Source: Octopus vulgaris
Lineage: Eukaryota
Length of the DNA stretch: 64,000 nt
Assembly (NCBI GenBank): GCA_951406725.2
Contig: OX597814.1
Coordinates: 2,790,001-2,854,000, forward strand
Reading direction: 5' to 3'
This document shows positions 10,241 to 47,728 of this stretch, piece after piece; within the stretch, counting starts at the first letter, position 1, and every line of letters starts with the position of its first letter. The notes beneath the pieces are model-generated. The model made no database searches and was not told the DNA's origin. It saw nothing but the letters and a program-made list of their open reading frames with translations. Made by a program: the position numbers and the translations under genes.

Positions 10241-10813
10241 CACGTACACACACACACACACAAACACACACACATCTATATATATATATACACATGTGTG
10301 TATATATGTATACACATATATATGTATGTATCGAGAGATAGAGGCAAAGCCAGAGACAGAGGCAGGGATAAAGAGGGAGAGAAGGCGATAGATCTCAGGT
10401 ATACAGCCAAAGACTCGAGAGGATTAAATATTGAATGATCAATCAAATAGTTAATAATCATTTAAATATTAAATGATCAATCAGTTATTGATTATTTCTG
10501 CATTTACAATGTAAAATAATTACATCTGAAAGCCACATAACGATAACAATTTTTCATTCATCGAATAATCAATTTTTAAATTTCCCTGTTCTTCCGTTTA
10601 GATATCTATTTCCAGATAGTTGTGTGCGTGGTTCGATTTCTTCTTGACTGGGCTGTCAGTATTGCTGTGGATTAGACCAAAGGTTCTTAAATTTTTGGGC
10701 CACCGCCTCCCTCGTGGCCACATATTACCCTCAGCGACACGCCCCTAGTTGTGTCAATACACGAACTCACATAAAGAATCTTGCAAGCCAGCTCCCAAAA
10801 CGAAATAAATATT

Positions 10814-11051
10814 ACAGTTCAAAATTTAAGAGATGAGAAATTATGTGCATTATTTATATTATTTACATTTGTCGGATATTTGTCATCATCTTGTTACTTG
10901 CTAACACAACGTTTCGGCTGATATACCCTCCAGCCTTCATCAGGTGTCTTGGGGAAATTTCGAACCTTGGTCCTCATTCCTAAGGTATTTTTCGATGTTG
11001 CTATTATTATCATTATTATCATTATTATCATTATCATTATCATTATTATTA

Positions 11052-11116
<65 letters not shown>

Positions 11117-11317
11117 AATAATAATAATAATAATAATATTTTTATTATTCAGGTCATTGCCTGGAATCCTACTCGGAATCTTAGGGTTAGTAGCCCGCTC
11201 TCTTAACCACTACGCCATATGTCCGTGGGCTCCTGATGAAGGCTAGATGGTATATCAACCGAAACGTGTTAACAACAAACAATATCAGAATACAGATCCG
11301 TCAAATGTAAATAATGT
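10814..11317 (-). mobile_element. tRNA-headed hammerhead element (family H1) with inverted tail copy
   Basis: Minus strand: tRNA-like head (about 11150-11225), (TAA)n, tail with hammerhead; inverted tail at 11230-11317; 11-bp TSD AAATAAATATT (10803-10813, 11318-11328). Confidence 0.85.
10903..10948 (-). ncRNA. Minimal type I hammerhead ribozyme (predicted)
   Basis: GACAC-CTGATGA-A-GGCTG-gagggtatat-CAGCC-GAAAC-GTT^GTGTT: stem I GACAC/GTGTT, stem II GGCTG/CAGCC, palindromic loopless stem III. Confidence 0.82.
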
Positions 11318-11599
11318 AAATAAATATTTTTTATTTTACTAATTCATCCTATGAATCATTTGATATTTAATATATTATATAATTTGTATACAATACTATA
11401 ATAATTCCCCTAATTCACTGCCTTCCTCCCTAACGCCTCCATTTCTTCTACTCCCCACCGTCCCCTTAGATACCAGCGTCTATCCGGACCGTCTCAACGT
11501 CCACGGGGGCTGGTAGCGCCCACATTGAGAACCTATGGATTAGACATTCAGAAGTCCGCTTCGCCTGAAGTTTATTTATATCAACAATTTCTAAACAAA

Positions 11600-23950: not shown

Positions 23951-23975
23951 GTGTGTGTGTGTGTGTGTGTGTGTG

Positions 23976-24169
23976 AACATTATGTACAATATTTACATTT
24001 GACAGATATTTGTCCTCATCTTGTTTGTTGTTAACACAACGTTTCAGCTGATATACCCTCCAGCCTTCTTCAGGTGTCTTGGGGAAATTCCGAACCTGGG
24101 TTCTCATTCCTGAAGTATTTTTCGATGTTGTTGTATTTGTTATTGTTGTTATTGTTATTATTATTATTA

Positions 24170-24230
<61 letters not shown>
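23976..24230 (-). mobile_element. Family H1 tail with hammerhead (24033-24078) and (TAA)n linker
   Basis: GACAC-CTGAAGA-A-GGCTG...CAGCT-GAAAC-GTT^GTGTT; an H1-type tRNA head occurs at about 24908-24980 on +. Confidence 0.8.
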
Positions 24231-24737
24231 GAGTGAGAGAGCAATGCATGCCATCAAAGTGACACTGGGGTAAAATATACGAAGCCCAGTATACCCATCA
24301 TGACTACCCGTCTGATTAGGGTACACCAGGCACATGCATCACTCCCATATGTGCGTGACATGGTGATCTCATATCAAGATAAACAGCACATGACCTTGCA
24401 GGTGAGGCCTAGTTAGAATAGAGTAGACCATCTTGCTCAAAAGGTCCCTGAATAAGGGTTATTTAAGGATGTTGAGCGAAATACCCATGTTTCCAAAGGT
24501 GAATTATCCAAACCTCTAAGAATTCCTTTCAACATACAGCTATGATGATCCCCCACTACTTCTGCTTGTGATCAGAGATGCACATATCGTCAGCCACTAA
24601 GGGACATGCTCAACTGGTTAAGGTCAAACAACTGACAAGCAAATCTGTGGTATTGAGCAGAATATTTGCTGTAGCCCATCTTTTATACCAAGACAAAACT
24701 ATGTATATGATAACACTTCCAATCAGTTAAGATCAGT
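24231..24737 (-). mobile_element. Non-coding about 500-bp insert inside an (AAT)n tract; probable retroelement fragment
   Basis: Complex sequence sharply bounded by (ATT)n and (AAT)n; no recognisable ORF; orientation inferred. Confidence 0.5.
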
Positions 24738-24898
<161 letters not shown>

Positions 24899-25152
24899 AT
24901 ATCCAGGTGGGCATATGGCGTTGTGGTTAAGAGCGCGGGCTACTAACCCCACGATTCCGAGTTCGATTTCAAGTAGTGAAAGCTTTGGTCGGCCCGAGGC
25001 TATAGTAGAAGTCACTTGCCCTAATTGCTACGCAGTGGGACTGAACCCGGAACCATGTGGTTGGGAAGCAAGCTTCTTACAACACACCCTGTACTTATTG
25101 CTTATACAAAGCACAAAATATTTGAACAACCTTTTAATACAATTCTTAATAT

Positions 25153-46697: not shown

Positions 46698-46925
46698 GCT
46701 TTTAGGTTTAACAATAAGAACGTCCCGAAGGTAGGAGAAATTGTTTATTGTTCTCTGAGAATCACAGAAAGTTTATCTTCTGGCGAATGTTCAGAAAACC
46801 TTTGAAGCTGATCCTGACAATACTTGTTCCCGAAGAAAAAAGCGACATCAAATGAATCTACGCAATTCATTAAAAGAGTTGCGTGCATAACATTTATGTT
46901 TTGTATACAGACAATACAACAGAAT

Positions 46926-47125
46926 ACAGTTCTGTATTTAAGAGATGAGGAATTATGTACATTATTTACATTATTTACCATTCGACGGATTTTTGTCCTC
47001 ATCTTGTTTGTTGTTAACACAACGTTTCGGCTGATATACCTTCCAGCCTTCATCAGGTGTCTTGGGGAAATTTCAAACCTGAGTTCTCATTCCAAGGGTG
47101 ATTTTCAATGTTGTTGTTGTTATTA

Positions 47126-47173
<48 letters not shown>

Positions 47174-47451
47174 TTATTATTATTATCATAATTATCATTA
47201 TTATTATTATTATTATTATTCACGCCACTGCCTGGAATCGAACTCGAATCTTGGGGTTAGTAGCCCGCGCTGTTAACCCCTACGCCATATGCCCGTGTTC
47301 CTTAAGAATGCCTTAGGAATGAGAACCCTGGTTCGAAATTACCCCCAAGACACCTGATTAAGGCTGGAGGGTATATCAGCCGAAACGTTGTGTTAACAAC
47401 AAACAAGATGAGGACAAATATCGGTCAAATGCAAATAATGTAAATAATGTA
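46926..47451 (-). mobile_element. tRNA-headed hammerhead element (family H1) with inverted tail copy
   Basis: Hammerhead 47016-47061 (-), (TAA)n, tRNA head 47225-47297 (-, box B gagttcgattcc), inverted tail 47311-47451 with second hammerhead 47349-47394; 13-bp TSD AATACAACAGAAT. Confidence 0.88.
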
Positions 47452-47679
47452 AATACAACAGAATGCTACAGCTTGTACTGTTCCTTGTCGCTGTGCAAAT
47501 AATCAATCTTAAACATAGGCGCATGAGTGGCTTTGGGGTAAGTAGCTTGCTTACCAGACACATGGTTACGGGTTCAGTCCCACTGCATGGCCTCTTGGGC
47601 AAGTATCTTCTACTATAGCCTCGGGCCGACCAAAGCCTTGTGAGTGGATTTCATAGACGGAAACTGAAAGAATCTCCTC

Positions 47680-47728
<49 letters not shown>

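Follow-up and report, generated by a model that had tools for sequence, protein, structure and literature searches.

A tRNA-headed short repeat of Octopus vulgaris is the end repeat of an autonomous Penelope-type retroelement

The element at positions 46926-47451 of the window, the whole 64,000-nt stretch of Octopus vulgaris DNA analysed here (contig OX597814.1), consists of two broken-off ends of a protein-coding Penelope-type retroelement joined head to head. The repeat family to which it belongs, here called H1, represents the pseudo-LTRs of an autonomous retrotransposon of the Penelope/Poseidon kind and no stand-alone SINE. The free-standing SINE family implied by an earlier note on this DNA could therefore not be upheld, since head, TAA tract and tail together make up the end repeat of a Penelope-like element (PLE) that carries an ORF. 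Inverted arms, one-sided tails and TSDs are already known for Penelope, so that H1 as described in that note would be an ordinary finding. What is unusual is an end repeat starting with tRNA-derived sequence, a probable Pol III promoter, which would explain the thousands of short, SINE-like copies. A tRNA-derived promoter within the end repeat of an autonomous element blurs the divide between SINEs and autonomous elements, and copies of the element are likely misclassified as SINEs in annotation.

Architecture of the element

The element is 526 nt long, with a main-arm tail of 185 nt (Table 1). On the plus strand, one reads first the tail (46926-47110) and then (TTA)n, the tRNA-like head, the filler and the inverted tail. 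The inverted arm is about 90% identical to the main arm, and its hammerhead core carries one point change (47354-47360). As the earlier note had stated, the copy at 10814 has the same terminus (acagttc) and the same succession of tail, (TAA)n, tRNA head and inverted tail, while the 46926 copy has a TSD of its own and an inverted part of different length. In the 10814 copy the second arm is shorter (11232-11323 aligns to 47311-47455 by BLAST), and the inverted arms of both copies end about 32-38 nt before the terminus. In ORF-linked copies, the extension reads on into the ORF. A third copy comprises an extension-less arm (23974-24231, minus strand) and a head on the opposite strand (24909-24978), with a repeat of about 500 nt between them.

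Table 1. Features of the element at 46926-47451 and other copies in the window (window coordinates).
Feature	Position	Strand	Remark
Left TSD, 13 nt	46913..46925	+	exact match to 47452-47464
Right TSD, 13 nt	47452..47464	+	exact match to 46913-46925
Main arm, 5'-truncated Penelope/Poseidon copy (head, TAA tract, first ~55 ORF codons)	46926..47297	-	5' end at head start
One-sided extension ('tail'), ~32 nt	46926..46957	-	other arm without extension
Putative minimal type I hammerhead motif	47016..47061	-	motif reading
Hammerhead core CUGAUGA	47056-47050	-	followed by long stem II
Hammerhead GAAAC-GUU with palindromic helix III	47028-47021	-	predicted cut between 47021 and 47020
ATG, likely start codon of the element ORF	47088..47090	-	frame broken at codon 6 here
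(TAA)n tract separating head from ORF start	47111..47221	-	reads (TTA)n on + strand
tRNA-derived head	47222..47297	-	cloverleaf pairing lost
Head A box	47287-47277	-	box match
Head B box	47243-47234	-	box match
Junction filler, 9 nt, imperfect inverted copy of the second arm's first bases	47298..47306		sequence reading
Second (inverted) arm, tail only, without extension	47307..47451	+	
Sibling two-armed copy (L194)	10814..11317	-	11-nt TSD (10803-10813 / 11318-11328)
Third copy (L195)	23974..24978		interrupted by another repeat

The (TAA)n tract varies in length among copies, and other elements often land in it. The repeat of about 500 nt (window 24232-24740) sits in the TAA tract of three separate copies (also L207 and L230), and a second common insert of about 200 nt recurs there (L017, L019, L172 and L208). 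Fragments of another abundant tRNA-like SINE adjoin element copies at 47520-47680 and 24979-25090.

Identity of the autonomous element

The complete unit runs ORF, stop, about 29 nt, head, (TAA)n, about 20 nt and ATG, and the tail corresponds to the first ~55 codons of the RT-endonuclease ORF. Sequence upstream of the head, common to seven loci, reads as the C-terminus of a Penelope ORF. When it was used as a query, 2944 candidates were obtained; among the 30 loci examined, the head lies directly downstream of the endonuclease end and in the same sense in 25 (23/28 without duplicates). From the other side, of 30 ORF-start loci found by a search with the ORF 5' region, 19 have the tail immediately before the ORF and in the same reading frame. 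Two loci (L360 and L373) preserve a partial tandem, i.e., the pseudo-LTR arrangement of tail, ORF, head and tail plus an inverted arm.

The N-terminus of the element, including the part encoded by the tail, shares 44% identity over 134 aa with an RT protein of 847 aa (E 2e-33), and the ORF contains the RT domain PF00078 (E 1.4e-10). Among 364 homologs of the ORF is an Anolis PLE-type protein of 836 aa (44% identity). By eye, the C-terminal pieces resemble the corresponding endonuclease part of the homologs, one of which is annotated with PF01541, and two decayed pieces gave no Pfam match; the endonuclease, read by eye, is probably of the GIY-YIG type. The element is probably one of the EN+ Penelope-like elements, and we take it to be of Poseidon type from its similarity to the Anolis protein and from its motifs, rather than from a tree.

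A hammerhead can be recognised in the end repeat by motif, with its core, stems I and II and a palindromic helix III; Rfam returned neither a hammerhead nor a tRNA match on two stretches. Minimal hammerheads (min-HHR) are described for Penelope end repeats in the available part of PMC4209133.

Two other candidates for the coding partner were discarded. A search with the tail peptide led to a single protein, an octopus gene model starting with the element peptide, which is not a partner. In this Octopus sinensis model of a cysteine-rich membrane protein, the first 36 residues or so correspond to the start of the element ORF (89% identity), either through exonisation or as a gene-model artefact. 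A GIY-YIG search led to other PLE families (30 + 20 loci), the ends of which do not match the tail, and these were kept as controls only. Younger PLE families distinct from H1 (L151-L156 and L166-L170) have intact ORFs of 781 aa and are inserted into (TA)n; their end repeats, direct or inverted, are nearly identical, and their hammerhead-like cores deviate from the standard pattern. Inverted arm, one-sided tail and TSD are also found in such families (L156 and L166).

Insertion geometry

The motif-selected sample was taken from the first 100 genome matches, in genome order, of a 29-nt tail motif, and comprised 87 loci once three duplicates were dropped. Extra loci from tail and head searches were added, and the number of pairs over all samples happens to be 87 as well. 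Rows dropped in the analysis were L261, L263 and L298 as duplicates, L178 and L192 because they are the second arms of elements already included, L215 as a duplicate of L213 and L002 as the same locus as L200; L211, a near-duplicate of one L213 arm, was kept.

According to a strict tail-tail rule, 57 of the 87 motif-selected loci are two-armed, or about 53% after hand correction for double sampling, and the second tail is absent in the other 30. In the head-selected loci, the figures are 10/29 by the strict rule and 15/29 by eye. The earlier note had held that a majority of full-length copies lacking an inverted tail would speak against its view. In the motif-selected sample most copies have one, whereas the head-selected sample is borderline.

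Over all samples, exactly one arm bears the extension in 79 of 87 pairs, both in one and neither in seven. Extension arms mostly end at tail positions 183-186 and the others at 139-152, giving two classes of 3' ends about 32-40 nt apart, one per arm. A TSD was recognised in 51 of the 87 pairs, compared with 2/169 flank-swapped controls, and is 9-16 nt long (mode 12-13) and AT-rich (22% GC); the remaining 36 have no clear TSD. An inverted arm, a one-sided tail of 30-40 nt and a TSD have been described for PLEs in the accessible parts of PMC8557442 and PMC3846280, and the one-sided tail also in that of PMC11167929.

The 5' ends of the 114 arms of the 57 motif-selected pairs are distributed between head start (37), inside of the head (26), TAA tract (25), tail (19) and endonuclease region (7). 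At least one arm ends at the head start in 29 pairs, and both do in eight; in the other 28, arms end inside the head, in the TAA tract, in the tail or in the endonuclease region. The proposal that the inversion adjoins the 5' end of the head hence describes about half of the two-armed copies and fails for the rest. Its companion, that the inversion is made anew at each insertion, stands: junctions vary, insertions have their own TSDs, and in 34 classifiable pairs the extension lies on the longer arm in 15 and on the shorter in 19. Each arm is truncated independently, and the inversion arises with each insertion. The idea that a palindromic master element is inherited was rejected, given that both the junctions and the extension-bearing arm vary.

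Proposed mechanism of insertion

Such elements are, in our judgement, probably head-to-head pairs of 5'-truncated copies, likely made in one insertion in which both strands are primed, from an RNA likely starting at a head that would serve as Pol III promoter. The endonuclease would nick both strands 12-13 nt apart, and each 3' end would prime reverse transcription at one of two sites within the 5' part of the ORF, at about +130 and +165. Each cDNA would then extend until drop-off or until the RNA 5' end, and the two cDNA ends would be joined, often via a small palindrome at the head start. Because reverse transcription would initiate internally, any head-initiated RNA, the full ORF transcript included, would yield a short SINE-like product by run-off, and copies extending past the head would derive from tandem or circular templates. 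According to the available text of PMC11167929, purified Anolis Poseidon cuts and extends both strands in vitro, and its RT starts at two internal ORF sites bounding the tail; these two sites would fit an origin of one arm from each.

Status of the short copies

The simplest reading of the short copies is that they may be run-off products of head-initiated RNA, and they may also re-amplify on their own. A stronger version, in which they form a true SINE lineage that does not depend on ORF-bearing sources, the Penelope protein copying their own Pol III transcripts in trans, appears rather unlikely. Short copies do hold in cis the A and B boxes and both RT start sites, their majority head and tail lack T4, and they far outnumber ORF-bearing copies, only 7/114 arms of two-armed copies reaching the endonuclease. 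Against this stand the variants 59A/128G/head 67A and 130T, which also occur in endonuclease-linked tails; no variant set is confined to short copies in an ORF-linked sample of about 44 tails, and thus no separate short-copy lineage was found.

With canonical tRNA-SINEs, the copies share a tRNA-derived head with A and B boxes. The head is, however, part of the ORF-bearing element rather than absent from the autonomous partner, and the 3' part is the start of the Penelope ORF instead of an end common with a LINE. Direct tandem tails, as expected of the tandem non-coding hammerhead units of retrozymes, occur in few of the 87 loci (L203 and L247). A free Dong/R4-type SINE inserting into TAA is ruled out, since a same-strand tail lies downstream in 26 of 29 head-selected loci and none of the 29 heads is preceded by a same-strand TAA tract.

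The tRNA-derived head and its transcription

The head is colinear with genomic tRNAs, with tRNA-Arg(TCG) as the best match (z 9.8 versus shuffles, 25 distinct tRNAs compared). The A and B boxes are intact in the family majority and the tRNA pairing is lost; ARAGORN reported no tRNA in the 64-kb window. The head likely acts as a Pol III promoter.

A total of 97 head matches were mapped in 87 loci. Of these, 37 stop within the head itself, 50 lie with their 5' end at most about 16 nt from its start (three of them placed further upstream by fold-back artefacts) and 10 pass upstream. Expressed for the arms that reach head position 12, 50/60 stop within about 16 nt and 10/60 pass, most of them by hundreds of nt. 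On the upstream side, the 5' ends break off abruptly 13-14 nt ahead of the A box, at the distance expected for a Pol III start.

The sense strand of the ORF was also inspected for T4. Over 2.5 kb, none of 14 conserved sites with at least three T reaches T4. The density of T4 is 0.58/kb (78,660 aligned bases) versus 3.27 in seven ORF stretches of other PLEs with a like T content, a control that is not clade-matched, the 30 loci sought as a clade-matched one having all turned out to be the same family. The Poisson probability of zero is 3e-4, a base-composition null gives 0.004, and a Fisher test on T3 sites is modest (p 0.039). A second, partly overlapping set of copies has 0.49 T4 per kb. Codon-shuffled family pieces are expected to contain 6.8 T4, compared with 3 observed, so that few were expected anyway. 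Taken together, the accumulation of 5' ends at the start of the head and the missing conserved T4 fit a possible transcription by Pol III.

How far such transcription would extend is a separate matter. As a tentative and somewhat doubtful proposal, the whole autonomous element may be transcribed by Pol III, with a captured tRNA promoter as its sole non-coding part, an ORF purged of T4, and a SINE shed by run-off. If true, this would show how a SINE family can arise directly from a Penelope element, and would raise the question of how such an RNA gets translated, uncapped Pol III RNA being hard to translate.

That last point favours an alternative that we regard as unlikely, in which the head is a passenger, an old tRNA SINE in the 3' UTR, transcription being by Pol II or from a circle and the pile-up arising from RT stalling or RNA processing. 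The head and a local RLE-type LINE have like ends before the TAA tract, and ORF-bearing copies often run through the head start. Three of the four ORF-start copies with a head continue into an upstream endonuclease, and long templates therefore often do not begin at the head. Pol II-type promoters are reported for other PLE end repeats in the accessible parts of PMC3846280 and PMC6765202. However, a passenger head does not account for ends that pile up only after the tRNA-like fold has been copied, with the sharp edge before the A box, nor for a unit with no other non-coding sequence to act as promoter and a sense strand devoid of conserved T4 over 2.5 kb. The acceptor stem is unpaired by eye, and processing by RNase P at the head was discounted for that reason.

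The head may have begun as a SINE. The LINE and the head end with the same few bases before TAA, a hint that the head could have originated as a SINE of that LINE, which we take to be Dong/R4-like. Its 3' ends were found inside the TAA tract of the element at L009 and L006, in both upstream of the tail, and also at L181 and L219.

Transcript data were also consulted. In raw RNA-seq reads (three runs of one study), head and tail are equally represented on both strands without a common start or end, and such symmetric reads provide no evidence on Pol III. RNA contigs from four runs under four organism codes cover the ORF start, tail, head and endonuclease; their depth was not used.

Two primed strands or fold-back

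An alternative to priming of both strands, close to the idea of the earlier note, is that the cDNA at the RNA 5' end snaps back on a GCCC-NN-GGGC palindrome and copies itself into an inverted arm. Almost perfect head-to-head palindromic junctions do exist, single-armed copies carry short fold-backs of 3-13 nt, and self-priming has been proposed for the inversions of Adineta Penelope (PMC3846280, available part). Very improbable in our view, it is contradicted by the 28/57 pairs with no arm at the head start and the mere 8/57 with both arms there, and by the extension on the shorter arm (19/34), which cannot come from copying the longer one. Fold-back explains the short palindromic additions at the head start, not that extension.

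Subfamily alleles bear on both readings. Derived sites common to both arms number 39, compared with 11.9 +/- 3.1 in random pairs, and at head site 67 the arms are concordant in 22/26; the arms thus share alleles above random and usually come from one source, as would also follow from fold-back. On the other hand, discordance exceeds that expected from decay at site 59 (7/64 versus 1.0) and site 128 (14/75 versus 5.4), which speaks against fold-back, while the excess at site 130 is not clear (3/63 versus 0.9, P 0.07). Some pairs therefore likely derive from two templates, unless these sites are hypermutable. As a counterpoint to two primed strands, mostly concordant arms are also expected under fold-back, and site 59 may be hypermutable. 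With about ten thousand copies, a fixed RNA 5' end and subfamily markers, the family offers a natural test of the Penelope insertion mechanism, i.e., of two primed strands versus fold-back.

Relation to known systems

In the available parts of the sources, Poseidon_Ac of the green anole (PMC11167929) and Adineta Pen2a (PMC3846280) likewise have a single ORF for RT and C-terminal GIY-YIG (the latter a probable reading for the octopus element), an end repeat containing the first ORF codons with a hammerhead near the start codon, an inverted truncated arm and a one-sided tail of about 31 nt. Their TSDs are about 8-10 nt long, versus 9-16 in the octopus element. The end repeat of Pen2a is of the TATA/Inr type, whereas the non-coding part of the octopus element consists of the A/B-box tRNA head and (TAA)n; moreover, unlike both systems as described there, octopus copies mostly end where the head begins, and no conserved T4 is present on the ORF strand.

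For the short form, the nearest analogues in the portions of the literature that were accessible are Schistosoma SM-alpha (PMC6765202) and the TRIMp3 elements Cassandra, Helenus and Ajax (PMC10886601). SM-alpha and Sj-alpha are likewise short repeats in which a Pol III promoter is followed by a hammerhead, but they are non-coding and often tandem, and no partner is given for them in the text covered, whereas the octopus arrangement is part of an ORF-bearing element and is inserted as inverted pairs. Cassandra, Helenus and Ajax have a Pol III promoter derived from a small RNA in their terminal repeat, possibly from a SINE insertion; they are non-autonomous LTR elements, with autonomous partners expected to use Pol II, while in octopus the autonomous Penelope element itself carries the repeat. 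Animal non-LTR retrozymes (10.64898/2026.07.22.740005; PMC4209133), as far as these texts go, share the Penelope-related type I hammerhead, the shortness and the high copy number, but are tandem non-coding units, compared with the mostly single or head-to-head pieces of a coding element in octopus. Canonical tRNA-SINEs, as presented in the accessible part of PMC10886601, are similar in their tRNA head with A/B boxes, shortness, high copy number and TSD; they differ in that the 3' part of the octopus copies comes from the beginning of a Penelope ORF and not from a LINE 3' tail, and that the octopus head is common with the autonomous element.

A literature search, mostly without full texts, found no account of a tRNA-derived head in an autonomous PLE and no case of a whole ORF read by Pol III; Repbase or Dfam may hold the family. 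The main text of the octopus repeat annotation (PMC13282606), in its available part, does not mention the element, and its supplements may hold it.

Abundance and unusual copies

In the 2.8-Gb genome, exact matches to the 29-nt tail motif number 5931, and there are none to the reversed control. A copy of the element is present in 5/60 evenly spaced 10-kb stretches, and the copies share a mean identity of 93% with the family majority. As both arms matched the motif in 11/57 pairs, a hand estimate puts the family at about 12,000 elements, with about 18,000 arms in total.

Some copies depart from the usual arrangement. L217 has two extension-bearing arms placed tail to tail, 138 nt apart, the opposite of the common orientation, and three loci (L203, L247 and L214) have three arms and show either a direct repeat of the tail or a template jump within the copy. 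On the contig of the window, L211, L213 and L215 (at 7.93, 8.94 and 9.05 Mb) contain a 99% alike ORF-bearing two-armed insertion, and the trio probably represents a segmental duplication. L213 carries an additional LINE-like insertion of about 2.9 kb.
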